Origin: an archaeon
GTDB taxonomy: Archaea > Iainarchaeota > Iainarchaeia > Iainarchaeales > CSSED10-239
DNA length: 14,798 bases
Direction of reading: 5' to 3'
Assembly (NCBI GenBank): GCA_037147375.1
Contig: JBAWVI010000015.1
Location: 1-14,798 of the forward strand
How positions within the stretch are numbered: position 1 is the stretch's first letter; every line of letters starts with the position of its first letter. The notes beneath the pieces were generated by a model, which did not search any database, was not told where the DNA came from, and saw only the letters and a list, made by a program, of their open reading frames with translations. The position numbers and the translations under genes were made by a program. Of this stretch, positions 1 to 12,150 are shown in pieces.

Positions 1-499
1 CATATATTCCATCTTGCAAGGTAATTGGATAAAGATAAGTTATTTTTTTAGTTGTTGAATCGCTTATGTTTAATAGATCTTCAAGATTTTCTTGATTATC
101 ATCACAAATATATTTTTTTGGATTTATTGCTGGAGGAGTTTCAGTAAATGTTTTTATTTGTTCAGTATAAATTATATCTGGACGACTAATGTTTAGTGTA
201 TTTTGATTATCTGTATTTAGATCTAAATCAATAATAAATGCATTCCACTTCTTGTTTGTGCTTACTTTATTACATGTTTTCATAAATAAATTATAATCTG
301 GAATTAATGGTTCAGATTTTAATATCATTGAAATTGATATTGCTTCTTGTTCAAGTGAATAAAGACCAGTGCTTGTTTTGTAGGTGTTATATGTGCTTAA
401 GAATACAGCAAAGAAGATAATTAGACCTAAGAATATTGGAATTAAGCTTGGGAGGTCATCTCCAATAGCTCCAATAAATCCTTTTTTATTTTTAACCAT
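1..499 (-). CDS. Partial (3'-truncated by window edge) N-terminally anchored, pilin-like hypothetical protein
   Basis: Absent from the ORF track because there is no stop inside the window. Manual minus-strand translation from ATG at 499-497 gives MVKNKKGFIGAIGDDLPSLIPIFLGLIIFFAVFLSTYNTYKTSTGLYSLEQEAISISMILKSEP... and stays open to position 1. A basic KKG is followed by a long hydrophobic helix. It starts 16 nt after the stop of the upstream same-strand gene (516), so it is probably co-transcribed. Confidence 0.5.
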   Translation of the reverse strand, partial: MVKNKKGFIGAIGDDLPSLIPIFLGLIIFFAVFLSTYNTYKTSTGLYSLEQEAISISMILKSEPLIPDYNLFMKTCNKVSTNKKWNAFIIDLDLNTDNQNTLNISRPDIIYTEQIKTFTETPPAINPKKYICDDNQENLEDLLNISDSTTKKITYLYPITLQDGIY

Positions 500-515
500 A
501 TTTTATCAAATCAAT

Positions 516-1217
516 CTAAACTGGTTCTGTTGTTAAATCTTTTTCAATGGCTATACAATTAAGATTAAGTCCAGGAGCCAAATCATTTTCTGGATACATA
601 TTTTCTCGAATATAATATCCACAACTTCTGTATCCGTACTTTTTTGCACAGGGCATTATATAAAAATAATTTTTATTATCTTTTACTTTTTTAATAAATA
701 AAATTGTTGAATCAATTGAATCTGCTCTTGTTGGACTAAAATCAATACTTATGTCATTTGTATTCCAATTAACTGGTATTGTATAATATCTTTGTAATAA
801 TGGCTGGTCTTCTGGTTTAAATGCATTTATGAAAGTTATTTCTCCATTATAATCCACATCATATGCTGCAAGTATTTTTGTTTTTTTTAAATTCATGATT
901 GTAATTACCATTTTATTTTCATATTTTGTTGTTAAATCAAATTTATGTGTGGATATATTCATAACATATGGAATTGAATATATAGACGAAGTGTTTTCAT
1001 TTGTTTTTAACTTAACTGGGATATCAATGTATTTTATTGTGCAATAACTTTCAGAATCAATTCCTGATTTTAGTTCCTTTCCGGTTTTATATGCAAGTTC
1101 AAAACCTTGTCTTGTCATAAGATTTGATGATACTGTGTTCATAAAAAATAAAACAATAGCTGCAATAGCGGTTACAAATATTAAAAGATTAAGTTTAGAT
1201 AAAGTAAATTCAATCAT
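516..1217 (-). CDS. Hypothetical N-terminally membrane-anchored extracellular protein (possible minor pilin/pilus-associated), 4 Cys
   Basis: 233-aa ORF with ATG start. GGGGTG Shine-Dalgarno at 1227-1232, 9 nt upstream. The single N-terminal hydrophobic helix is MIEFTLSKLNLLIFVTAIAAIVLFF. The rest is polar and beta-rich with 4 cysteines. I recognise no family. Confidence 0.55.
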   Translation of the reverse strand: MIEFTLSKLNLLIFVTAIAAIVLFFMNTVSSNLMTRQGFELAYKTGKELKSGIDSESYCTIKYIDIPVKLKTNENTSSIYSIPYVMNISTHKFDLTTKYENKMVITIMNLKKTKILAAYDVDYNGEITFINAFKPEDQPLLQRYYTIPVNWNTNDISIDFSPTRADSIDSTILFIKKVKDNKNYFYIMPCAKKYGYRSCGYYIRENMYPENDLAPGLNLNCIAIEKDLTTEPV

Positions 1218-1249
1218 TTATTTTTGCACCCCTATTCCCACATTAATAT

Positions 1250-1789
1250 TTATATACTTTTTAGAAAACAAAAATTTGCTGATATTTGATCGGTTGCTGT
1301 TGCAGCTCTAAATAATCTATATCTTCCTGGTTCGATTAGATGAAGATTCATTGGATCAATAGGTGCCCATTTAAGTTCATCTTCAGTACTTAATCCACAT
1401 TCCTCTGGACTAGTTATAAAGTTCATTGTTGTTGGAAGTCCAGTACATATTGGAGATATAGGATATCTTATTCCTTTTTCTGTATCATTATAAACATATT
1501 CTAAGAGAACACAACTAACTCCATTTCCACAATACGCTGTACATTTACTTTGTACTTCATAATGATTTAATTGAATGCTTTCTGCTTTAGAATTAAAGCA
1601 AGCTTTTGTTTGGAAAGTTATATTTCTAAAAGTTAAGTCAGAGCCTAGAACAACATCACGAAGTGAGGTTACAAGGTCACCCATTTCTTTTCTTTTATCT
1701 CCAAGACAAGTATTTTCAGATAAGTTTTTTAGTGCATAAGTTCCTGCAAGGATTAACAATAACAGCAACAAGAATTTCAAAAGGTGCAC
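1250..1789 (-). CDS. Secreted Cys-rich (8 Cys) protein; probably the body of a class III-signal pilin whose true 5' end lies in another frame (see 1716..1826)
   Basis: The 179-aa ORF only opens with GTG at 1789, since revcomp of 1787-1789 is GTG. Its N-terminus MHLLKFLLLLLLILAGTYA|LK could pass as a Sec signal. An ATG-initiated ORF with a canonical prepilin leader overlaps its first 24 codons in a different frame. Confidence 0.6.
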   Translation of the reverse strand: MHLLKFLLLLLLILAGTYALKNLSENTCLGDKRKEMGDLVTSLRDVVLGSDLTFRNITFQTKACFNSKAESIQLNHYEVQSKCTAYCGNGVSCVLLEYVYNDTEKGIRYPISPICTGLPTTMNFITSPEECGLSTEDELKWAPIDPMNLHLIEPGRYRLFRAATATDQISANFCFLKSI

Positions 1790-1826
1790 TAACTTGTCCT
1801 TTTCCTATATCTTTACTTGAAATCAT
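1716..1826 (-). pseudogene. 36-codon ORF encoding an orphan class III signal peptide (MISSKDIGKGQVSAPFEILVAVIVNPCRNLCTKKLI*); likely the displaced 5' end of 1250..1789 (frameshift, sequencing indel or recoding)
   Basis: Hand-verified codon by codon from ATG 1826-1824 to TGA 1718-1716. GKG|QVSAPFEILVAVIV closely parallels KKG|QAFSTFQLLIAAVV of the 3208..3765 pilin. TATA-like TTTAAATA at 1848-1855 is centred about 26 nt upstream of the ATG, the geometry of a leaderless archaeal transcript. Removing one base around 1752-1757 (GTT AAT CCT) would join it in frame, giving ...ILVAVIVILAGTYALKNLSEN. Confidence 0.5.
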
Positions 1827-1847
1827 ATACTAAAATATAATAAGAAG

Positions 1848-1855
1848 TATTTAAA
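1848..1855 (-). promoter_or_regulatory. TATA-box-like element (TTTAAATA on minus strand) upstream of the ATG at 1826
   Basis: Matches the archaeal TATA consensus TTTAWATA and is centred about 26 nt upstream of the ATG. AT-rich background makes chance matches common. Confidence 0.35.
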
Positions 1856-1899
1856 TTAGTTTTCTTTTAAGATAAGAGATTAATAGCTTAAAAAGAAAA

Positions 1900-2283
1900 T
1901 TATTTATTAGCTATTTTATTTTTTGAGTTGTATTTAATCATTTTCTTTTTTTCTGCAAGAAAAGCAGGTTTAAGTGCATTTATATTACTGAATATATAAT
2001 CTCTTTGTTCTTGGGTATAGGGTTTTTGAGTTATTCCCCGTCCCCTAAGAAGGTCCATAAACTCACCTATATAAATATCACAAAGTTTTGCTCCTTCAGA
2101 CATAGATATTTCATCTTCAGAATAAAGTTTAATAGCAAGTTCTTTAGATATTTCTTTAAGCCCTATATCTATTGCTTTTCTATAAACTTGTGCTTTATCC
2201 ATGAATGTATTTAATTTTACAATTAAAGCTACTTGATTAGTTGCTTTTTCATCAAGTCTTAGATTTACATTATTTAAAGCCAT
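1900..2283 (-). CDS. UPF0175-family-like antitoxin (N-terminal RHH-like segment plus HTH-like core, with C-terminal extension)
   Basis: The core ELAIKLYSEDEISMSEGAKLCDIYIGEFMDLLRGRGI matches the UPF0175 pattern (ELAIxLYxxGxISxGxAAELxGxSxxEFxxLLxxxGI) as I recall it. The ORF track starts at 2292, which is a GTG. I prefer ATG at 2283 (MALNNVNLRLDEK...), 5 nt after the PIN stop. Confidence 0.65.
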   Translation of the reverse strand: MALNNVNLRLDEKATNQVALIVKLNTFMDKAQVYRKAIDIGLKEISKELAIKLYSEDEISMSEGAKLCDIYIGEFMDLLRGRGITQKPYTQEQRDYIFSNINALKPAFLAEKKKMIKYNSKNKIANK

Positions 2284-2288
2284 ATTTA

Positions 2289-2783
2289 TCACATTATTAA
2301 TTTATTCATTTCTTCTATTTCATATTTATTAAATCTACCATTCATTATTAATAAATTTAAAGATTCTTTTGTATCTTCACAGGTAATAAATTTATTTTTA
2401 TGCATTTCAAATAAAAGTAACCAAGATGTATACAATTTTAGATGTAAAGACTTGCAAGCATTTATTCCTTTTTTATCATCAATCAATATTATTTTATTTA
2501 ATTCTTTTGCAAGAGCAATTGCATATAGCTCTCCAATATCTATTTTATATAATTTTGCAATTTCATTAACCATCTTTTGGCTAGGTTCTGAAATAACAAT
2601 TTTTTGGTTCGTAACTAAATTTTCAATTTCAAAAGCATCTGAATAATTTTTTTCTTTACCTTTTAACACTTCACTATAAACTATTTTCGGGATATATATC
2701 TTTATAAATTGAATAAGTTTTATTAATAGTTTTGATTTAGATAATAATATTAAAGTTGATGAATCAGATATAACTATTTCCAT
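2289..2783 (-). CDS. PIN-domain toxin, DUF3368-like (predicted RNase)
   Basis: The N-terminal VISDSSTLILLSK carries the first PIN Asp. GELYAIALAKELNKIILIDDKKGINACKSLHLKLYTSWLLLFEMHKNKFI matches the DUF3368 PIN pattern GEAEAIALAxEL..LLIDDxxARxxAxxLGLxVxGTxGVL. GGTG Shine-Dalgarno lies 7 nt upstream of ATG 2783. Confidence 0.7.
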   Translation of the reverse strand: MEIVISDSSTLILLSKSKLLIKLIQFIKIYIPKIVYSEVLKGKEKNYSDAFEIENLVTNQKIVISEPSQKMVNEIAKLYKIDIGELYAIALAKELNKIILIDDKKGINACKSLHLKLYTSWLLLFEMHKNKFITCEDTKESLNLLIMNGRFNKYEIEEMNKLIM

Positions 2784-2864
2784 TTGTTTACACCAAATAT
2801 ATATTATATAGAAAGAATTAAATATATTACGTTTTATTAAATCGTAACCTTTGGCTACATAACC

Positions 2865-2903
2865 CCTATAATTAATAAAATTTATAGGTTATTTTAATAA
2901 AAA
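2865..2903 (-). terminator. Possible terminator of the small pilin gene: T5 run (2899-2903, minus strand) followed by a 7-bp AT-rich hairpin (2865-2871 / 2882-2888)
   Basis: On the minus strand CTTTTTATT lies 25 nt downstream of the TAG stop at 2930-2928. CCTATAA / TTATAGG form an inverted repeat with a 10-nt loop. Oligo-T tracts are the usual archaeal termination signal. Confidence 0.35.
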
Positions 2904-2927
2904 GAATAAGTTAACTTAGTTAATTAA

Positions 2928-3143
2928 CTAGCTTGTGCCTGTTGTTCCACCAGTAACTGTGTTTGATGGTAGAGCTGCTTTCTTTGCACTAGCTTTAACA
3001 GAGTTATTAAACATTGGTTTAACAACAGCTATTAGGATGATTGCAACAATAACAACAATAAGGAGCATATAAAGAGTATTAGATTCAGCTTGTCCTCTAG
3101 TCTCTTTAAGAGCACACTTCAAATCTGAAATTAATCTTTTCAT
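2928..3143 (-). CDS. Minimal class III-signal pilin (71-aa precursor, about 54-aa mature); candidate major pilin
   Basis: MKRLISDLKCALKETRG|QAESNTLYMLLIVVIVAIILIAVV has a basic leader ending in RG, then Q-x-E-S...L and a 22-aa hydrophobic helix. The tail is short and ends GGTTGTS. It appears to have its own TATA-like box (TTTATTATATA), an AGGATGA Shine-Dalgarno about 9 nt upstream, and a downstream T-run. Confidence 0.75.
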   Translation of the reverse strand: MKRLISDLKCALKETRGQAESNTLYMLLIVVIVAIILIAVVKPMFNNSVKASAKKAALPSNTVTGGTTGTS

Positions 3144-3207
3144 AACTTAATTCATCCTAAATATATAATAAACAAAAATAATAAAAAGGGAAGGGGAAAA
3201 GAGAGAT

Positions 3208-3765
3208 TTATTGAGCTCTCTTTGGAAATATTACACAATTTGTAACTCCAGGATCTGCACTATCATCAAAGGTTATATCTTCTGGTGTAAATTTGATTTT
3301 AGGACTATCTCCGCTACTATAAGCCTCAATTGATGCCATCAAATCATCTTGAGTACCATCACAGAGTATACCTATCATGTATTTACCTTTATCAGTTTTA
3401 TCATAACCTATTGCAGTAGTTCCAATTGTACTAAATGTACCATCTAGTCCATTAATAGAAAATGCAATTTGTTGTCTATCAAGACCAGTATCATTTGTAA
3501 CTCCACTTGCTGCTAATGAGTTTGTTTTTCCAGAGAATGTTACTGATTCAGTGAAAGCTAATGTACCTGGATTATTTATTTGAGTTTTTAGTAAAGATTG
3601 AGCTGCTTGAGATGGATCCCCACCAATATCTACATTTTTCATAATTATTGGTAGTAATACACCTAAAAGAGCAAGTGCAACAACTGCAGCAATTAATAAT
3701 TGAAAAGTTGAGAATGCTTGTCCTTTCTTGTTTTTAATTTTTAAAATATTTGATAAATCTAACAT
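3208..3765 (-). CDS. Class III-signal pilin-like protein (185 aa)
   Basis: The N-terminus ...KIKNKKG|QAFSTFQLLIAAVVALALLGVLLPI is followed by a Gly/Thr/Ser-rich beta-type domain with 2 Cys. A strong AGGAGG Shine-Dalgarno sits 10 nt upstream of the ATG. Confidence 0.75.
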   Translation of the reverse strand: MLDLSNILKIKNKKGQAFSTFQLLIAAVVALALLGVLLPIIMKNVDIGGDPSQAAQSLLKTQINNPGTLAFTESVTFSGKTNSLAASGVTNDTGLDRQQIAFSINGLDGTFSTIGTTAIGYDKTDKGKYMIGILCDGTQDDLMASIEAYSSGDSPKIKFTPEDITFDDSADPGVTNCVIFPKRAQ

Positions 3766-3775
3766 TTTTAATCGT

Positions 3776-3781
3776 CCTCCT
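3776..3781 (-). promoter_or_regulatory. Shine-Dalgarno AGGAGG for the 185-aa pilin gene
   Basis: Plus-strand cctcct at 3776-3781 reads AGGAGG on the minus strand, 10 nt before ATG 3765. Confidence 0.6.
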
Positions 3782-3861
3782 TAATCTAGACATAAATATT
3801 ATATGTTTTTCAATTAAAACATTAAATCAAAACATATTTAAATGTATTTCTCATGGTTCCT

Positions 3862-4365
3862 TTAAACTATCTGATAGATTAGGTTAAAGCATACTGTTAT
3901 TATTGTTGGAATTACTAGCATGAAAAGTATATCCCATACATGTATCCCTGGTTGTTGTCTTGATTGTTTGTAATCAAAAAGATGATTCTTGTATGAATAT
4001 AATACTCTTCTTCTAATCGTCATTAAGTTCCATAAGGTACCAAATATAATTGCTGAAGTTACCCAAATTAAGGTAATTCCTGTTGTACCTGATTTTTGTA
4101 TTAAAGGAACAAATATTAATTTCCAAAATAAAAGAATTAAACCTACAGTTATTCCTGATGCAAATATCATCTTAATTAGGTTTTTCATAAACTTACTCTT
4201 AATTAAATCAATTAACTTGTTTAATACTAAACTTAAGATAAAAAATACAGTTATTAGTATAATTATTGCAAAGATTACAGCAAGTATAATTAATCCAAAG
4301 AAGTAACCTAGCACTAAGATAATGATTGCAATTAAAAACCATTTAAGTTTGTTTAATATATTCAT
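3862..4365 (-). CDS. Hypothetical polytopic membrane protein (about 5 TM), unknown family
   Basis: 167-aa ORF with ATG start, 19 nt after the upstream gene's stop. Hydrophobic segments lie at about aa 8-50 (two helices), 63-88, 93-115 and 142-165. I see no GxGD or paired-Asp motif of prepilin peptidases. Confidence 0.55.
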   Translation of the reverse strand: MNILNKLKWFLIAIIILVLGYFFGLIILAVIFAIIILITVFFILSLVLNKLIDLIKSKFMKNLIKMIFASGITVGLILLFWKLIFVPLIQKSGTTGITLIWVTSAIIFGTLWNLMTIRRRVLYSYKNHLFDYKQSRQQPGIHVWDILFMLVIPTIITVCFNLIYQIV

Positions 4366-4384
4366 ATTTTTTCAAATTTATTAT

Positions 4385-4906
4385 TTAATCAATAGCTTCA
4401 GGATATAAACTACTATCAGGTCTTGTATTGAAATATAATGCACAATATGTTGGACAATCTGTAGAGGTATTTAATATAATTGCTCCTTCATCTCCATAAT
4501 ATCCACAATAAACATAAACATCTGTTTTCATGAATTTTTTATTAATACTAATAAAATCAGTTGATGAATTATCAAATCCAGGTCCTGATTTAAATAGAAT
4601 ACATTCTTTTGAATATCCTGTTAACTTAGATATCCTTTCTTTTGAAATTATCCCAGAAAGCATAACATCTTCGATAATAAATGGGGTTTGCGTAGTTACT
4701 CCCGGGCCCTTGCTTGCAGAAATAATTCCTTCTTCAAACTTAGCAGTACTAATAATAATAGATTGATTATTAACTCTCCCAACCATAACAATAATAATAA
4801 CAAGAACAGCAGTTGCGAGTACAAAAGCGATTAAGAGGCGAAAGGATTCAGATGCTTCATCATCTCCTTTTTCATTCAAGCTTATTTTTTTAAATAATTT
4901 ATTCAT
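4385..4906 (-). CDS. Pilin-like protein with variant class III signal (173 aa, 4 Cys)
   Basis: MNKLFKKISLNEKG|DDEASESFRLLIAFVLATAVLVIIIVMVG aligns with the other leaders (ASESFRLLIAFV versus QAFSTFQLLIAAV). Its ATG overlaps the upstream gene by 8 nt (4899-4906). Confidence 0.65.
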   Translation of the reverse strand: MNKLFKKISLNEKGDDEASESFRLLIAFVLATAVLVIIIVMVGRVNNQSIIISTAKFEEGIISASKGPGVTTQTPFIIEDVMLSGIISKERISKLTGYSKECILFKSGPGFDNSSTDFISINKKFMKTDVYVYCGYYGDEGAIILNTSTDCPTYCALYFNTRPDSSLYPEAID

Positions 4907-5396
4907 ATTTAATTTTTCCAGTTAAGTCTATTTCATATCTTGGAAGAGAATGTTTTTTACTAAATTTTATTGATCTAATATTTCCTTCTTTGTCTTGCAC
5001 ATATAATTTATAACTATTTATATCTGCACCAATTACTTTTTTAACATTATTTAATTTTTTTAAAATATCATATTCTCTAGAACTACCTTTAACTAATTTA
5101 AACCCAAATATTTCTGCATATTTTGGATATTCATAAAAAATCCAAGAGTATGTTGCAATTTGGTCTAAATTATTTTCTTTAGCATGTTTAATTAATTTAT
5201 TTCTAATATCTAGTGCTTTTTCTCTTGTAAGTCTACCATTAGATATAAAATCATGAATTTCAAGGATTTTATGATTTGCTCTAAATGTTAAATGATAATC
5301 TGGAGTTTTAATTTCCTTTCTATTATTAATTATGTTTGCAACTGTTTTTTGATTTAATAATTTTTTCCTTATTTTAATGAATTTTGGGCTTTTCAT
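4899..5396 (-). CDS. Hypothetical soluble basic protein (165 aa), no TM or signal; unknown family
   Basis: ATG start 14 nt after the platform gene stop, with an 8-nt overlap into the next pilin-like gene, so it is embedded in the operon. It shows only a weak GNAT-fold-like pattern (ILEIHDFIS...LIKHAKENNLDQIATYSW...AEIFGFKLV) and lacks the Q/RxxGxG/A motif. Confidence 0.55.
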   Translation of the reverse strand: MKSPKFIKIRKKLLNQKTVANIINNRKEIKTPDYHLTFRANHKILEIHDFISNGRLTREKALDIRNKLIKHAKENNLDQIATYSWIFYEYPKYAEIFGFKLVKGSSREYDILKKLNNVKKVIGADINSYKLYVQDKEGNIRSIKFSKKHSLPRYEIDLTGKIKYE

Positions 5397-5410
5397 ATTT
5401 TATCAATAAT

Positions 5411-7645
5411 TTAAAATATTAAATTAGATGCAATTGTAGTTAATATAAATAAGATAATAGCTATTGGTAAGGTTTGTGCAATTCTTAGTTTAGCAAGAGT
5501 CATATTATCTTGTTCAACCATTGTAGTAAAGAATGTCATAATTATTACTATTTCAATAACATATATTGCAACTATGATTAAAAAGGTTGTTGGACCAGCA
5601 AGTTGACTTACTGCTCCCATATCAATAGAACCCATATTTCCAATACTTGAAACATCTATTCCACCAGTGTCAATTCCAGAGGTTGAGATTGATTGAAATG
5701 CACTATTCATTTCATCAAGGGTACCACTGTTTGCAATAGAGGTTAGAGTAGAAATAACAATCTTTTGTAAGGCTGTAGTGATTCCTAGAACTATTGGAGC
5801 AATGTACTTTGCCATGCTTGATAAAGTACCAGTAACACTTGAGATTAAGTTAGTTAGCATCTTTGAAACTTCATCAGAGTTTCTAAGTTGCATAGAGTAG
5901 GACATTAATGTTTTTGCAGCAACTGAAACACCAAGTTGAACAGAATCAACCATAAGTCTCATAGCACTATTAATTATGTTTGATGGATTATTCTTAAGTG
6001 CACCATAATTAGGATCAAATAAAGAAGAATTAAGATTAAGCCCTAAGATTCTAATGTTATCAATTGCTTTACCAAACACATTTTTAGCAATTAATGATTT
6101 TGGAAGGAAAGCTCTTGTATGAGCAAAAGCATCTTCAATTGGCTTATTTTCTCCTAGTCTACTTGCAATAACATATAATGCATCCTTAAATTCATCTTCC
6201 ATTTTCTCAGTTTCAATTTGTACTTTTCTCTTATAATAACTTTCAGAGAATAAAAATAAAGATAAGATTAATGAAAATCCAATTAACATACCATAGATTA
6301 AAAAGTAAGGAGTTACATCATGTGCAGAATCTTGCCAAAACTCCCTTTCACTAGCACACATGAACTTTGGATCAATTCCTTTTTGTGTAACTTCTTGAGA
6401 AGTACAATTAAACTTAGCAAGAGAAATATCTTGCCCTTCTGTAATATACCCTTCCTTAATTAATATATTTTCTTTTGTTTTACCTAAAGTTCCTTGCAAG
6501 AATATACTTCCTGCAATTATTGCAACTCCAAGTATTATCATTAAAATAAAAACATTAATTGGTGCTTTTCCAATCTTAATAGTGTATCTTGGTGGAAGAT
6601 CAGGATGATTTTGTGGAATATCTGGAGGATTATAAGTTGCTGGTCTACCTCTAATAATGTTTCTTGCAAACATAATACAAGCAAATGGGATAGCAATATT
6701 ATAAATTAAGATTAAATAAATTGGTTTAGCAAGAGCTGAACCAGAGAATGCTGATCCTACTGGAAGAACTATAATTAATAATAAAGGAAGAAGAACACCT
6801 AGATAGAACATTGTCATTGTTGGTTGATTAAGTCCTCTTGCATAATCTTCAAGCTTATTCTTAATTGAAGCAAGAGTATCAGTCATTGTTTGATCAAGGA
6901 TTGCATATCTTTTTGATTCACTTGTTTCAATAACTGAAGATCTAATCTTCATTAAAGCTTTTTTAAGTTCAACTGAAACATCTCCCCATTTGTAAGCTAG
7001 TTGATCAAGAGCTTCAGCAACTGATCCTTTTATTCCTACTTTAACTTCCCAAAGAAGTCTTTTAAGATCATCAGCAATCTTACCATGTCCATGGTTTGAT
7101 GCAAATTCAACTGCTTTTTCAAGGTTAGGAACAAGTTTCATTGACATTATCATATAACCTAAGATTTCTGGAACAAAGGTTAGAGCTTTTATTTTTTCAT
7201 CACGAACCTTTGTTAGAGGATAATTTCTAAATGTAATAAATGCATAAATAAATGCAATTGCAGGAATACCAATTGCAATTATGTATGGCATAATTGCGTT
7301 ACCAAATAAGCTTATCATTGGTCCAACTGCATACATAAAAAGAATGAATGCTATTATTGCAGTAACTATTAAACCAAAAATTAAAACAAACTTAGTTGCT
7401 GCTGTGTATTCTTCTGATCGAAGATCCCAATCAAGAAAATCCATAGCTGCTTGAAATTCAGGATCATATTTAGAATTAGCACCAAGGCCAGGAAATCTTC
7501 TATAAATATTTCTACAAAAAGCAACGAACTTATTATCTTTTCTTTTAATTAGACGAGAATCATCAACCCCAAAATCTCGTGCCTCAACAGATATTCCTGA
7601 GTATATTTCACCAGGACTTCTTCTGTCTTTTATTTTTTCAACCAT
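5411..7645 (-). CDS. FlaJ/TadC/PilC-type polytopic platform protein of a type IV pilus-like system (744 aa, oversized)
   Basis: Two repeats of a soluble helical domain followed by TM helices. The first runs at about aa 165-290 (LEKAVEFASNHGHGKIADDLKRLLWEVKVGIKGSVAEALDQLA...YARGLNQPTMTMFYLGVLLP). The second runs at about aa 480-640 (FKDALYVIASRLGENKPIEDAFAHT...MRLMVDSVQLGVSVAAKTL...). This is the T2SSF-like architecture of FlaJ/TadC. At least 8 TM segments. Confidence 0.7.
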   Translation of the reverse strand: MVEKIKDRRSPGEIYSGISVEARDFGVDDSRLIKRKDNKFVAFCRNIYRRFPGLGANSKYDPEFQAAMDFLDWDLRSEEYTAATKFVLIFGLIVTAIIAFILFMYAVGPMISLFGNAIMPYIIAIGIPAIAFIYAFITFRNYPLTKVRDEKIKALTFVPEILGYMIMSMKLVPNLEKAVEFASNHGHGKIADDLKRLLWEVKVGIKGSVAEALDQLAYKWGDVSVELKKALMKIRSSVIETSESKRYAILDQTMTDTLASIKNKLEDYARGLNQPTMTMFYLGVLLPLLLIIVLPVGSAFSGSALAKPIYLILIYNIAIPFACIMFARNIIRGRPATYNPPDIPQNHPDLPPRYTIKIGKAPINVFILMIILGVAIIAGSIFLQGTLGKTKENILIKEGYITEGQDISLAKFNCTSQEVTQKGIDPKFMCASEREFWQDSAHDVTPYFLIYGMLIGFSLILSLFLFSESYYKRKVQIETEKMEDEFKDALYVIASRLGENKPIEDAFAHTRAFLPKSLIAKNVFGKAIDNIRILGLNLNSSLFDPNYGALKNNPSNIINSAMRLMVDSVQLGVSVAAKTLMSYSMQLRNSDEVSKMLTNLISSVTGTLSSMAKYIAPIVLGITTALQKIVISTLTSIANSGTLDEMNSAFQSISTSGIDTGGIDVSSIGNMGSIDMGAVSQLAGPTTFLIIVAIYVIEIVIIMTFFTTMVEQDNMTLAKLRIAQTLPIAIILFILTTIASNLIF

Positions 7646-7971: not shown

Positions 7972-8424
7972 ATGAAAACAAAAATAAAAAAATTAACAAA
8001 TAAACTTCTTGAACAAGACTTTTCTGGTTTTATTGAAACTTTATCTAATTTGCGTCCATCTAATGAATTAACACTAGATAAAGCAAAAGAAATATTAAAA
8101 CAAAAGAAAAAATTCAATAGTATTGTTCTTGTTGGTTTACTTGATAAAAAAATAGTTGGAACTGCAACAATAATAATTGAACCTAAATTTATAGCAAATG
8201 GAGGAATAACAGCGCACATTGAGGATTTAGTTGTTAGAAAGGGTTATGAAGGGCACCATGTTGGTTCAATGTTAATGGTTAAAGCAATAGAACTCGCAAA
8301 AGAAAATAATTGTTATAAAGCTATACTTGATTGTAAAGAGCATTTAATTTCATATTATCAAAAATTTAATTTTGAAAAAAAAGCAGTTAATATGAAATTA
8401 TATTTTTATGAAGATAAATTATGA
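7972..8424 (+). CDS. GNAT acetyltransferase, glucosamine-6-phosphate N-acetyltransferase (GNA1)-like
   Basis: IVGTATIIIEPKFIANGGITAHIEDLVVRKGYEGHHVGSMLMVKAIELAKENNCYKAILDCKEHLISYYQKFNF tracks the human/yeast GNA1 core as I remember it ([28 protein letters not shown]...RGKQLGKLLL...LNCYKITLEC...NVGFYKKFGY). Confidence 0.7.
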   Translation: MKTKIKKLTNKLLEQDFSGFIETLSNLRPSNELTLDKAKEILKQKKKFNSIVLVGLLDKKIVGTATIIIEPKFIANGGITAHIEDLVVRKGYEGHHVGSMLMVKAIELAKENNCYKAILDCKEHLISYYQKFNFEKKAVNMKLYFYEDKL

Positions 8425-9290: not shown

Positions 9291-9314
9291 TGAAACTTGT
9301 TTTAAACAAGTTCA
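9291..9314. terminator. Palindrome between convergent genes (possible bidirectional terminator)
   Basis: AACTTGTTT (9294-9302) and AAACAAGTT (9304-9312) form a near-perfect inverted repeat. It starts 13 nt after the stop of 8421..9278 and spans the stop codon of the zinc-ribbon gene. It is flanked by an A-run on the left (a T-run on the minus strand) and by AAAATCTTTT on the right. Confidence 0.35.
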
Positions 9315-9577
9315 AAATCTTTTGATGCACCTGGCTTATTCTTAATCTTATCAGATAAAGATACACCATCATCTACCTTGTGTTTAATTGTTGAACTTGA
9401 TTCAACAAACTTTGTTCCACCAGGTTTAGTTGATTTCTTCATTTCATTTATTTTATCAATAGAATCAGATTTAACGTCTCCAGATCTATTACACATTGAG
9501 CATACATAGTTTCCATTTGCAGCATCAAACCTAACATTTAGAGAATAACATGCAGGACAATATTTATATAACACCAT
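9302..9577 (-). CDS. Zinc-ribbon protein with a disordered Lys/Ser/Asp-rich tail, unknown function
   Basis: CPAC-x15-CSMC forms a four-Cys zinc ribbon at the N-terminus. The ORF track start at 9583 is TTG. I prefer ATG at 9577 (MVLYKYCPAC...), which has a GTGAT Shine-Dalgarno 6 nt upstream. Confidence 0.6.
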   Translation of the reverse strand: MVLYKYCPACYSLNVRFDAANGNYVCSMCNRSGDVKSDSIDKINEMKKSTKPGGTKFVESSSTIKHKVDDGVSLSDKIKNKPGASKDFELV

Positions 9578-9745
9578 AATCAAATCACTTCTTTTTACCT
9601 TGTTTCTTTATTTTATTCATAGATGTTTTAATTTCATTAGATAATAAGATAGTTAATTAAATTTATAAATATATTGTATTAGATATTAGTAATTAAATAA
9701 ACTTATCTCAATCAAATAATATTAGAAACTTGTGTGTGAATAAAT

Positions 9746-10948
9746 ATGGTTGATAAACTAATTAGTAAACAAAAGATAATTGCAAGCCCATTACCTAAAC
9801 TTAATAAATATCTAAGCGATGATGATATTGAAGAAATTATGATAAATGGAATTGATAATATTTTTATAATTTCAAGAGAAAAAGGAAAAATCAAACTAGA
9901 TTTTACGTTTACAGTAAATGAACTTGCGGATTATGTTGCTTATGTTATAGAGGTTACTGGTAGAAACTTTAAATCAAGAGAATTTATAGATGGAATATTA
10001 CCAGATGGTTCAAGAGTTAACATAGTTTCTAAAAACGTTGCAAAAGAATATATTATAACCCTAAGAAAATATACTCAAGTACCATTAACTATACTTGATC
10101 TTATTCAAGATGAAACCTTAAGTGTTGATGTAGCTGCATATTTGTGGACAATTATTGAAGGATTTGGGGGTTTAAAGCCAGTTAATATCTTTATTTGTGG
10201 AGGAACAGCTACAGGTAAAACTACATTTTTAAATATTCTTCTTAAATTCATACCTTTAAATCAAAGATTAATTGTTATAGAAGATACAAGAGAACTTAAT
10301 TTATCTTCTTTTGAAAATAGTGTTAGATTAGTTTCAGATATTTCTAATCCTGATAATTTATTAGATATTACTATAAATACACTTAGAATGAGGCCTGATA
10401 GAATAATTATTGGAGAAGTTAGAGGTAAAGAAGCTAAAGGTTTATTTGCAGCTATGGAAACAGGGCATGATGGATGTATGGCTACATTACATGCAAACAA
10501 TAGTGCTGATGTAATAAATAAACTTTTATCTGATCCTATGAAAATACCAGAAGTAAATATTAGTCTTCTTAATGTTATTGTAATGCTTAAGAGAGAATGG
10601 AATTGGGATACTAAAAAAACTAAAAGAAGAGTTACTCAGGTTAGTGAAATTTCAAGAATAGGAAATATTAATTTAAATCACATTTATGATACTGGTAAAA
10701 ATAATGATAACTTAAATTCAGAAATTAAATTATATTCATCTAAAATAATTGAAGAATTTGCTGAATTCTTTAATATCTCAAAAAACGAGGTTATTGATAT
10801 TATTGGATATAGAGCACAAATACTTGATCATTTAGTTAAAACTAATAAAAACAAAAAATATACAACTTTAGAATTAATTGATATTTTTAATCAAAAAAGA
10901 TTAAACTATATATCAATACTTGAAGATATTAAAAGACTTAAAAAATAA
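9746..10948 (+). CDS. Type II/IV secretion-family ATPase (FlaI/VirB11/CpaF-like), presumed pilus assembly motor
   Basis: Motifs present: EEIMINGIDNIFI, Walker A GGTATGKTT, Asp box RLIVIEDTRELN, Walker B RPDRIIIGEVRGKEA and His box GHDGCMATLHAN. At 400 aa it is short for a FlaI-type protein. Confidence 0.85.
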   Translation: MVDKLISKQKIIASPLPKLNKYLSDDDIEEIMINGIDNIFIISREKGKIKLDFTFTVNELADYVAYVIEVTGRNFKSREFIDGILPDGSRVNIVSKNVAKEYIITLRKYTQVPLTILDLIQDETLSVDVAAYLWTIIEGFGGLKPVNIFICGGTATGKTTFLNILLKFIPLNQRLIVIEDTRELNLSSFENSVRLVSDISNPDNLLDITINTLRMRPDRIIIGEVRGKEAKGLFAAMETGHDGCMATLHANNSADVINKLLSDPMKIPEVNISLLNVIVMLKREWNWDTKKTKRRVTQVSEISRIGNINLNHIYDTGKNNDNLNSEIKLYSSKIIEEFAEFFNISKNEVIDIIGYRAQILDHLVKTNKNKKYTTLELIDIFNQKRLNYISILEDIKRLKK

Positions 10949-10959: not shown

Positions 10960-12150
10960 ATGAATATACAAGAAAGCAAAATAGGTGTTATAGCATTTGG
11001 AGTTAAAACAGGAATAATTACATTTGATGATAATATAATTGATGTGGTTGTAAATACATTTAAAAAAAATCCAGAACTTTTACAAAACAAAGATATTCTT
11101 TGTGTTGGGGAAGCAGTTACTGCAATTACACAACATAATACAGTTTACTTAAATGATGTTAAGGTTGAGATTAAAAAAAGATTAAAACTTAAAGATAATT
11201 CAGTTGTTGGAGTATTATTTCCAATTCTTTCAAGAAATAGATTTTCAATGATACTAAAAGCAATCTCAAAATGTGTTCCAAAAGGTAAAGTTATTGTTCA
11301 ACTATCATTTCCAACAGATGAACAAGGAAATCCAATTTTAGATAAAACTTACACTATCAAGAATAACATTAAATATGAGGACTTAATTAAGGAAACAGAT
11401 ATACCTAAAGCTAAGAGACATTTACATCCAGAAACTGGACTTGATTATATTCAAGTATATAGAGATGTTATTGCAAATCATGGTAGAAAAGCAGAAATTT
11501 ATTTATCAAATATGGTTGATCATATGATAAGTAAAAAACCAGATGCAATTATTGTTGCAAATGTACATGCAAGAGATGAAATTTTAGAAAAAGTTAAAAA
11601 GAAATTTAAAAACGTTATAACTCTTCAAGATATTTATTCTAATCCTAAGCAAAAGGTTTATAGTGAATATGGGCTTCTTGGATCAAACATCTTAGATCCT
11701 GAAAGAGAAATATTGAAGCTTGCTCCTCACTCAGCAAATAAACTTGCACTTGAAATACAAGCTAAAGTTAAAAAAGAATTAAAGAAAGATATTGAAGTTA
11801 TTATCAAAGGAGATGGAGGATACAAGGATCCAGAATCAGGAATATATGAGCTTGCTGATCCTGTGTCTGCTTTTGGAGTAACTCCTGGTATAAAGAACAA
11901 GAATAGAATTGGAGTTAAAACTAAATATTTAATGCAAAAGTTATATACTGAAGGAAAAAAGAAAGAAGAAATATTAAAAATAATTGAGCAAGAAAAACAA
12001 AAGTTTCTAAAAGATAAAAAGAAAGATAATTTCAATGCACAAGGAACAACTCCACGAAAAATAGAAAACCTTGTTTCAGCTCTTGCAGATCTTGTGTCTG
12101 GTTCAGCTGACGCAAACACTCCAATAGTTGTTGTTAGGGGATTTATATAA
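10960..12150 (+). CDS. F420-0:gamma-glutamyl ligase (CofE)-like family protein, divergent and enlarged (396 aa)
   Basis: The N-terminus GIITFDDNIIDVVVNTF...NKDILCVGEAVTAITQHN parallels CofE PLIKEGDDLAELI...GDVLVVCSTVISKAEGR. The C-terminus ENLVSALADLVSGSADANTPIVVVRGF parallels CofE DEIAAFANLLMGEGGDGIPAVVVRGL. The middle region is not recognisable and the KAEGR motif is not conserved. Confidence 0.45.
   Translation: MNIQESKIGVIAFGVKTGIITFDDNIIDVVVNTFKKNPELLQNKDILCVGEAVTAITQHNTVYLNDVKVEIKKRLKLKDNSVVGVLFPILSRNRFSMILKAISKCVPKGKVIVQLSFPTDEQGNPILDKTYTIKNNIKYEDLIKETDIPKAKRHLHPETGLDYIQVYRDVIANHGRKAEIYLSNMVDHMISKKPDAIIVANVHARDEILEKVKKKFKNVITLQDIYSNPKQKVYSEYGLLGSNILDPEREILKLAPHSANKLALEIQAKVKKELKKDIEVIIKGDGGYKDPESGIYELADPVSAFGVTPGIKNKNRIGVKTKYLMQKLYTEGKKKEEILKIIEQEKQKFLKDKKKDNFNAQGTTPRKIENLVSALADLVSGSADANTPIVVVRGFI

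Follow-up and report, generated by a model that had tools for sequence, protein, structure and literature searches.

What machine is built by a compact run of archaeal genes whose products are recorded in public databases, for the platform and all pilin-like proteins and for nearly every other component, as 'hypothetical protein', and which motor powers it? The question is raised by positions 1-7645 of a 14,798-nt stretch of DNA (contig JBAWVI010000015.1 of assembly GCA_037147375.1; ~27% G+C), hereafter the window, from an archaeon of the Iainarchaeota. DPANN archaea are abundant, most of them have yet to be cultured, and a life attached to other cells is assumed for them; the molecules used for this attachment are largely unknown. 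Our analysis indicates that the locus very probably encodes an archaeal type IV filament (pilus-like) assembly system, and comparison with related sequences shows that the window carries most of a conserved ~13-gene locus of Iainarchaeota (Diapherotrites) and some Micrarchaeota. A sequence-only reading of the window had called a type IV pilus-like cluster at the same place; its open reading frames (ORFs) and coordinates for 1-7645 were as found here, and a T2SSF-family platform together with several class III-type proteins in a DPANN archaeon bears the call out. That earlier observation was largely right, and its interpretation was right in kind and wrong or incomplete on the motor, a broken gene, the division into core and accessory parts, and the extent of the locus. 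The type of machine is known, and nothing is overturned.

The genes lie closely packed in a minus-strand operon that runs from position 7645 to position 1. The platform and the pilin-like families, for which the letters A and C to H are used, are as follows, with a vertical bar at the predicted cleavage site:

5411..7645, minus strand: platform protein, 744 aa, a divergent, long polytopic membrane protein of the T2SSF/FlaJ/TadC family, from Pfam matches among relatives and an AlphaFold2 (AF2) model
4385..4906, minus strand: pilin-like family A, 173 aa, with the class III-type N-terminus EKG|DDEASESFRLLIAF
3208..3765, minus strand: pilin-like family C, 185 aa, a candidate globular pilin, KKG|QAFSTFQLLIAAVVALA
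2928..3143, minus strand: pilin-like family D, 71 aa, a helix-only candidate major pilin, with conserved (K/R)(A/G)|QSEWNSVYMLIVLIIAALLLITVIKPMF
1250..1826, minus strand: pilin-like family E, disrupted in the window and 195 aa long in sibling assemblies, GKG|QVSAPFEILVAVIVMGF
516..1217, minus strand: family F, 233 aa, leaderless, with a pilin-like helix from residue 1, MIEFTLSKLNLLIFVTAIAA
1..499, minus strand: pilin-like family G, truncated by the window end and 183 aa long in the sibling locus L003, KKG|FIGAIGDDLPSLIPIFLGL

A 165-aa protein is encoded between the platform and A, a 167-aa protein between A and C, and a PIN-like/UPF0175 pair between D and the disrupted E; these are taken up below. 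The ENA metagenome contig ERZ4223250 NODE_2057 is identical to the window, and contig CAYUKR010000001.1 of the metagenome-assembled genome (MAG) GCA_964445425.1 matches it at 99.9% identity.

Related loci were fetched with exact and homologous platform proteins as anchors. The closest relative, L025, has flanking genes 82-89% identical to those of the window; the platform proteins of L009 and L008 are 67% and 60% identical to the window's, and those of L007, L010, L011 and L012-L024 are 43-48% identical. In the source records these loci belong to 'Candidatus Iainarchaeum', 'Candidatus ainarchaeum', Diapherotrites and, in one case, Micrarchaeota, all of them DPANN (kingdom Nanobdellati). Across the related loci the gene order is constant (platform, A, C, D, E, F, G, H, I, J, K); it is kept together with the cleavage-site motifs in at least 14 Iainarchaeota/Micrarchaeota loci, and A, C, D, E, F, G, H and K are syntenic and orthologous in loci with platforms that share 43-67% identity with that of the window. 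The locus thus continues past the left end of the window with H (276 aa, pilin-like), a charged cytosolic protein I on the opposite strand, a polytopic membrane protein J (~175 aa) and a giant protein K. K is 1688 aa long in L003 (13458-18524) and 1500-1770 aa across loci, with orthologues of 1497-1772 aa in L008, L009, L010, L011 and L025; it has a Sec-type signal and a C-terminal transmembrane helix followed by KKKKKK, and it always comes after the pilin set and J in the loci that extend far enough. No Pfam domains were found in G, H, I, J or K, and comparison of K with PDB sequences returned nothing.

Pilin-like families and the platform protein

Downstream of the platform, seven pilin-like families always succeed one another as A, C, D, E, F, G and H. 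Six of them have N-termini of the class III type, (K/R)(G/A)|Q/F/Y: a variable basic leader ending in (K/R)(G/A) is followed by a strongly conserved helix that is first polar and then hydrophobic, a layout which, as read from the sequences, is that of substrates of archaeal class III (PibD/FlaK/EppA-type) prepilin peptidases. Of the four such N-termini proposed for the window by the sequence-only reading, three are exact, namely TRG|QAESNTLYMLLI in the 71-aa protein (2928-3143), KKG|QAFSTFQLLI in the 185-aa protein (3208-3765) and EKG|DDEASESFRLLI in the 173-aa protein (4385-4906); the fourth, in the ORF at 1826, is broken by an 11-bp deletion. A heuristic requiring (K/R)(G/A) within the first 35 residues and a hydrophobic 16-mer no more than 10 residues further on was matched by 4 of the 23 ATG-initiated ORFs (≥60 aa) in the window and by 6 of 25 in the longer sibling locus L003, and all of these matches lie within the cluster. 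The leaders differ in length and sequence among orthologues: with 10-14 orthologues aligned for each family, the conservation per column is 0.34-0.46 in the leader, rises to 0.74-0.94 at positions -2 to +1, stays at 0.71-0.84 over +2 to +25 and falls to 0.42-0.57 in the C-terminal domains. On the alignments, this is the classic profile of type IV pilins and goes beyond what chance would give. The family motifs read:

Family A: KG|Q(A/E)F(D/E)V(F/Y)xLLI; in the window lineage KG|DDEASESFRLLI
Family C: KG|Q(A/E)(F/S)(S/D)(V/T)F(Q/K)LLI(A/S)AV
Family D: (K/R)(A/G)|QSEWNSVYMLIVLIIAALLLI
Family E: (K/R)(G/A)|QE(E/S)APFE(L/V)L(V/I)AVI
Family G: (K/R)(G/A)|(F/Y)(L/I)G(P/A)IGDDLPSLIP
Family H: (K/R)G|QAAITDAL(F/Y)FL

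Each pilin-like protein has a single N-terminal hydrophobic segment, and every globular member has an even number of cysteines. Their C-terminal domains matched no Pfam, NCBIfam or PDB entry, in agreement with the earlier statement that they fit no known family. Family A, with orthologues in nine loci of which most carry the family motif, combines one N-terminal hydrophobic helix with four cysteines, and family E, with motif-bearing orthologues in 13 loci, has eight. Family G, seen in 12 loci, has the most conserved mature N-terminus of all (0.84 over +2 to +25); its ORF at 1..499, previously regarded as merely N-terminally anchored, bears the conserved class III-like site KKG|(F/Y)(I/L)G(A/P)IGDDLPSLIP.

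Family C has 87 homologues, all of them unannotated DPANN proteins, in which G15-A27 and C135 are invariant and C177 is nearly so. A confident AF2 model built from 58 sequences (predicted local distance difference test score, pLDDT, 89.6) shows a helix at residues 19-44, a second helix, and a beta-sheet with one further helix that together suggest an alpha/beta domain carrying the conserved Cys135-Cys177 pair. Foldseek returned 0 matches of this model to the PDB at E≤1e-3, and the pilin models of Pfam matched 0 of the 58 members. An additional 259-aa paralogue in L008 (13430-14209) has a C-terminal domain resembling that of C behind a different, multi-transmembrane N-terminal region, which looks like domain shuffling among pilin-like proteins. 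Family D keeps its motif in 13 loci and, at an ORF-called length of 49-81 aa, of which the longest are probably over-extended start calls, leaves ~40-55 residues beyond the predicted cleavage site, consisting of a hydrophobic helix and a short tail. Its matches to known families are below threshold: the N-terminus of GspG at E=0.023, and Flp_Fap at E=0.098 (12.9 bits against a cut-off of 32.2).

In family F, described earlier as N-terminally anchored, the helix is indeed N-terminal; it begins at residue 1, and the family is leaderless. A TAA stop lies directly 5' of the ATG, and 12 of 12 orthologues start with M(L/I)xF(T/I)LSK(L/M)NLLI. When the family profile was compared with 1.84 billion representative proteins, 141 clusters (50% identity) were retrieved, none of which had more than nine residues before the match, and in ~106 of which profile positions 1-2 align to residues 1-2. 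F is therefore leaderless, with a pilin-like helix, and would be no substrate of a peptidase of the usual type; we interpret it as an uncleaved, membrane-anchored component.

The disruption of E was resolved by comparison with the sibling contig. The ATG at 1826 opens a 36-codon ORF, MISSKDIGKGQVSAPFEILVAVIV followed by a stop, and the 179-aa remainder (1250-1789) lies in another frame; 11 bp (TATGGGTTTTG, between TTGT microrepeats) are missing at a junction at ~1755/1756, so that part of the conserved helix is lost and the frame is shifted. The sibling assemblies GCA_964445425.1 and GCA_005795845.1 have the 11 bp and an intact 195-aa E. The deletion may be a real variant (of the population or a minority of it), an event resembling phase variation or an assembly error at ~6x coverage.

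The platform protein was identified through its family. The 744-aa protein itself stays below the Pfam threshold for T2SSF (E=0.014, 15.8 bits against a cut-off of 25.2, residues 165-295), but 27 of 37 family members match T2SSF (PF00482) at E≤0.01, the best at 1e-6 and always in the first cytosolic domain; its membership in the T2SSF family, which had been put forward as the point to check, is thereby established. All 372 homologues come from DPANN MAGs (Diapherotrites/Iainarchaeum, 'ainarchaeum', Micrarchaeota), and a few of them are annotated as T2SS F family or carry a precomputed PF00482. Every locus has a single platform gene, of 721-806 aa. A confident AF2 model from 112 sequences (pLDDT 86.3; predicted template-modelling score 0.83) is all-helical, with cytosolic six-helix blocks at 142-271 and from 467 to ~600, transmembrane helices on either side of each, and an extracellular loop at 384-447. 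The helix lengths of the two modelled blocks are similar (32/11/17/6/16/≥29 and 30/11/16/13/15/29). Foldseek placed the model next to GspF-like domains, namely SpoIIIAB (6bs9), which we take to have a GspF-like fold, the cytoplasmic domain of OutF (5nbg) and PilC in 3jc8; these domain-level matches are biologically coherent, with E-values that are not significant. Comparison of the platform profile with PDB sequences gave nothing at E≤1.

The ATPase of the system

One ATPase of the type IV filament class is encoded in the window, on the other strand:

9746..10948, plus strand: FlaI/GspE2-type T2SSE ATPase, 400 aa, a lineage-specific neighbour (T2SSE, E=9e-29)

Its class, given earlier as FlaI/VirB11-type, and its position, with a start 2.1 kb from that of the platform, are as described. 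FlaI is its best NCBIfam model (213.7 bits against a cut-off of 550), the PDB matches are led by 2OAP (3e-45) and FlaI (1e-44) with CpaF among the best, and it is a genuine ATPase of the FlaI/GspE2/CpaF class. As the motor of this system, the role that its proximity had suggested, it probably does not serve, because it is only 24% identical to the ATPase linked to the platform in relatives and because its slot is empty in L025, L009 and L008.

In 17 of 17 more distant platform-bearing loci, a T2SSE ATPase of ~760 aa is encoded directly upstream of the platform; they include L007, L010, L011 and L012-L024, and many metagenome loci have the same arrangement. Among themselves, the long ATPases have 66-72% identity, and they share a conserved N-terminal extension of ~300 residues containing Cys and His; the long form scores 137.9 bits against the NCBIfam FlaI model (cut-off 550). 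The AT-rich clade of the window departs from this arrangement: in L025, L009 and L008 no ATPase adjoins the platform, and the slot between the F420-ligase and Zn-ribbon genes, which holds the 400-aa ATPase in the window, is empty. The apparent lack of the short ATPase in the sibling L001 has a different origin, a 100-N scaffold gap (~6810-6910) and no deletion; across this gap the ATPase gene loses its end and the F420-ligase gene its start, and a false fused ORF of 678 aa results.

Scanning JGI metagenomes brought up at least 580 proteins related to the long ATPase. Among loci of 24-33% G+C, long ATPases stand alone, with no platform downstream (L032, L034, L039 and L041-L044; 56-64% identity), and in L042 and L044 they are flanked by housekeeping genes. 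We consider the most probable motor to be a T2SSE ATPase of ~760 aa whose gene lies elsewhere in the genome, a view based on these AT-rich stand-alone loci, whose affiliation is uncertain. On the simplest reading, the genes of the long ATPase and the platform have become separated in this clade, and the 400-aa ATPase is an unrelated recent arrival. The metagenome scan covered the best 80 loci, and the contigs of L025 and L008 are not among them; a scan of genome contigs with two N-terminal peptide patterns gave 13 loci, none from this species, and is uninformative.

Two long ATPase ORFs are much larger, with 1293 aa in L022 (830-4711) and 1276 aa in L024 (2251-6081); their similarity to the ~760-aa form ends at about residue 497, just past the Walker A region, which looks like an intein insertion. 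More distant long ATPases (37-41% identical), usually followed by a platform 24-31% identical to that of the window, occur in L066-L105, where no orthologues of the seven pilin-like families were detectable, which points to a much broader range of related systems whose pilin sets differ.

Insertions, accessory genes and neighbours

The other genes interspersed in the operon are:

4899..5396, minus strand: basic soluble protein, 165 aa, with no transmembrane segment, predicted as a lineage-restricted accessory; no Pfam or NCBIfam match
3862..4365, minus strand: polytopic membrane protein, 167 aa, with 4-5 transmembrane segments, found in the closest clade only
1900..2783, minus strand: PIN-like (DUF3368) toxin and UPF0175 antitoxin, an inserted pair and no part of the apparatus, from family matches and its absence in relatives

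The 165-aa and five-transmembrane proteins are present in the operon as had been described, but their distribution marks them as lineage-restricted and not as core parts. The former has an orthologue in L025 only (50% identity) and is absent between the platform and A in L008, L009, L007 and L010; the latter has orthologues in L025, L009 and L008 only. The toxin-antitoxin pair (UPF0175 at E=7.7e-9, weak PIN matches and a precomputed DUF3368 assignment) is missing from its position between D and E in L025, L008, L009 and L007, and in the window it leaves gaps of 144 bp and 73 bp between these genes. L025, collinear in other respects, also lacks a GNAT acetyltransferase gene (7972-8424) and the gene of the 400-aa ATPase. 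Since all three are lacking even there, the toxin-antitoxin pair, the GNAT gene and the 400-aa ATPase gene are regarded as three recent insertions.

Three membrane proteins were considered as the prepilin peptidase and rejected. The five-transmembrane protein (3862-4365) has no Peptidase_A24 match and no conserved GxGD/acidic pair and is absent in distant relatives; J has a GLGDG in the window lineage that L008 and L007 do not keep; and a membrane protein of 331-336 aa encoded upstream of the long ATPase in L007 and L010 has no family match and almost no acidic residues.

Among the neighbours, a 93-aa TFIIB-type zinc ribbon protein (9302-9583, minus strand; E=1e-4) is conserved in L025, L009 and L008, and TFIIB homologues have been proposed as regulators associated with type IV pili (PMC4858521). 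A CofE-like F420-0:gamma-glutamyl ligase of 396 aa (10960-12150) is conserved beside the locus in the same three relatives; it appears to contain a large insertion, because its Pfam match spans residues 14-394 against a profile of 218 positions, and its presence in a DPANN genome of reduced size is odd. In L007 (1-6470) and L010 (1-5404), ahead of the locus lie an archaeosortase/exosortase-like gene (PF09721) and the gene of another giant protein, of 2600-2800 aa with a weak or faint CarboxypepD_reg match, which looks like a separate surface-protein anchoring system beside the pilus locus.

Proposed mechanism, alternatives and known systems

In the mechanism that we propose by analogy with characterised type IV filaments (PMC4858521; bioRxiv 10.64898/2026.04.22.720090), a peptidase encoded elsewhere would remove the leaders, and the platform, powered by a hexameric T2SSE ATPase, would lift the helices out of the membrane and polymerise them. 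D, helix-only and ~40-55 aa long when mature, would be the likeliest bulk subunit because the major pilins of the Epd and Flp systems have the same size and build, and A, C, E, G and H may act as minor or tip pilins since they are single-copy, globular and probably disulfide-bonded. F would form an uncleaved, membrane-anchored base, and K may be an associated adhesin or surface-layer component, because large adhesin-like or S-layer-like proteins are often linked to archaeal type IV pilus loci. This composition resembles that common in archaeal type IV pilus loci, with a major pilin of ~70 aa, at least five minor pilins and large adhesin/S-layer-like proteins (PMC4858521). A role in cell-cell or host attachment is plausible by the same analogy; thin pili-like filaments have been observed on a cultured Micrarchaeota cell and are not linked to these genes (PMC11329633).

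Several observations weigh against the assignment as a type IV filament system or against parts of it. No window protein reached the thresholds of the Pfam models Class_IIIsignal (PF04021), N_methyl, Flp_Fap or archaellin, and at E≤0.1 these models gave nothing beyond the Flp_Fap match of D; likewise, no window protein reached threshold with the NCBIfam pilin, class III, Flp or archaellin models. A prepilin peptidase (A24) was not found in the window or within 10 kb on either side of any related locus examined. For the platform, the C-terminal halves of 10 members had no T2SSF match in Pfam, an hhalign comparison of its N and C halves gave no duplication signal (with an effective number of sequences of only ~1.9), and the Foldseek E-values were, as said, not significant; the duplicated domain architecture that had been claimed for it is visible as two helical blocks in the model but has no sequence signal, and is likely but not proven. 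The cognate long ATPase is known from relatives, the window's own genome being covered by one contig, and the system may be impaired in this strain because E is frameshifted. D as the major pilin, and any role in adhesion, are suggested by analogy.

How, then, do other explanations compare? The 400-aa protein (9746-10948) is unlikely to be the motor of this pilus: as a bona fide FlaI/GspE2-class ATPase near the platform it would be a natural candidate, and archaeal ATPase/platform modules are exchangeable and can serve pilins encoded elsewhere (PMC4858521), but it lies on the opposite strand beyond four unrelated genes (ferredoxin, GNAT, AP endonuclease and Zn-ribbon), shares little identity with the platform-linked ATPase, is missing from its slot even in L025 with its closely similar flanks, and is set against AT-rich relatives that retain a long ATPase standing alone. 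We also judge it quite improbable that the products form a short pseudopilus, in the style of type II secretion or of the Sulfolobus bindosome, which would export, position or anchor K or other surface proteins and make no long adhesive pilus. The linkage of K and J to the pilin set, the many single-copy 'minor' pilin-like proteins with no tandemly amplified major pilin gene, and the bindosome precedent together with S-layer/adhesin genes in type IV pilus loci (PMC4858521) speak for it; K, however, has its own Sec-type signal and anchor and would not need a pseudopilus for export, a helix-only D of 40-55 aa is of the type found in the true filaments of Epd and Flp, and the thin filaments of the cultured Micrarchaeota cell, although not tied to these genes, point the same way.

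A decaying or inactive locus, from which this strain makes no functional apparatus, has a low probability. The loss of part of the E helix with the shift of frame, and the gaps that the toxin-antitoxin pair adds between D and E, would fit such decay, and each minor pilin is essential in the Epd system of M. maripaludis; yet two sibling assemblies of ~99.9% identity have an intact E together with the same toxin-antitoxin pair, all other genes are intact, and a deletion between TTGT microrepeats in a metagenome assembly of ~6x may be a minority variant or an assembly error. That the cluster is an archaellum operon can be practically dismissed: FlaI is the best NCBIfam model for both ATPases, but its scores (214 and 138 bits) are far under the 550-bit cut-off, no archaellin, FlaH, FlaF/G, FlaC/D/E or FlaX match was obtained in the window or the related loci, and gene content and order are unlike the seven-component set described in PMC4858521. 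The type IV filament system thus preferred here might, in addition, be a separate, unclassified subtype widespread in DPANN archaea and a cell-contact organelle of Iainarchaeota and Micrarchaeota, with C as a pilin fold without a solved relative; this we offer tentatively, as a possibility short of even chances. The marks of such a subtype would be a ~760-aa ATPase with its ~300-residue extension, one platform of ~720-810 aa, seven private pilin-like families, the helix-only subunit and the leaderless member among them, and the invariably linked giant surface protein.

The value of the locus, which is moderate, lies mainly in serving as an annotation key and as a target for experiments on the DPANN cell surface. 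Annotation rules for hundreds of MAGs can be drawn from the seven pilin-like families with their cleavage motifs and from the partner ATPase, the locus gives targets for proteomics, cryo-electron tomography and antibody work in the few DPANN co-cultures, and family C is, on its model, a candidate for a new pilin fold.

The sequence-only reading had taken this as the likeliest place for an undescribed surface apparatus. In the literature we found no description of this conserved locus, of its leaderless member, of the long ATPase or of the linkage to K, but type IV pilus loci with unrecognisable pilins have already been noted in DPANN archaea: a survey by Makarova, Wolf & Koonin (2019; PMC6393860) reports islands in which an ATPase and a TadC-like protein are accompanied by signal-peptide proteins outside every known pilin family, and mentions in general terms class III-type proteins and small hydrophobic proteins of uncertain function in such loci. 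Unlike the present analysis, the survey does not, in the text searched, describe family definitions, a leaderless member, the long ATPase or the linkage to a giant protein. A 2026 census of type IV filaments mentions DPANN archaea only under system 1, Aap-like systems and subsystem 4A.

With the archaellum the locus shares a FlaI-class ATPase, a FlaJ-like platform and class III-signal subunits, and it differs in having no archaellins, FlaH, FlaF/G or FlaC/D/E/X. As in the Aap and Ups pili of Sulfolobales and the PilA pili of Haloferax, the core consists of an ATPase, one FlaJ/TadC-like platform and pilins with class III signals; the ATPase gene may lie away from the pilin genes, and S-layer-like proteins are frequently encoded nearby. 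In contrast to those simple loci, with one or two pilins or a stand-alone pilA, the present one has seven dedicated families in fixed order, and the modelled domain of C (alpha/beta, with a Cys pair) is without a solved pilin or archaellin neighbour. The bacterial Tad/Flp system is similar in its helix-only pilin of ~40-55 residues, its TadA/CpaF-like class of ATPase and its accompanying pseudopilin-like proteins, and is set apart by its G|xxxxEY motif, absent here where Flp_Fap stays below cut-off, by a platform made of TadB and TadC in place of one polypeptide, and by the secretin, TadZ and TadV, none of which was detected here.

The refuting outcome named by the sequence-only reading, an archaellum or Epd system with all components assigned, was not what emerged: the archaellum families are absent and the Epd features tested were not found. 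In the Epd pilus of Methanococcus maripaludis (clade 1/system 1, a system reported in a few DPANN genomes), the platform is split over two genes and EppA and a FleN/MinD ATPase are encoded in or near the locus, none of which was seen here; no A24 peptidase or MinD-like match occurred in any locus examined, and no sequence similarity to the Epd pilin families was demonstrated. Further differences are the ~760-aa cognate ATPase with its N-terminal extension of ~300 aa and the leaderless, pilin-like F. The size and build of family D fit a short major pilin without a globular domain (arCOG06620-like), with no homology demonstrated. In overall design, Epd is nonetheless alike, according to its descriptions (PMC4858521; bioRxiv 10.64898/2026.04.22.720090): its multi-gene locus, too, combines a candidate major pilin that is very small and has no globular domain with five or more additional 'minor pilin' genes bearing class III signals, further membrane proteins and a surface or adhesin-like protein of very large size.

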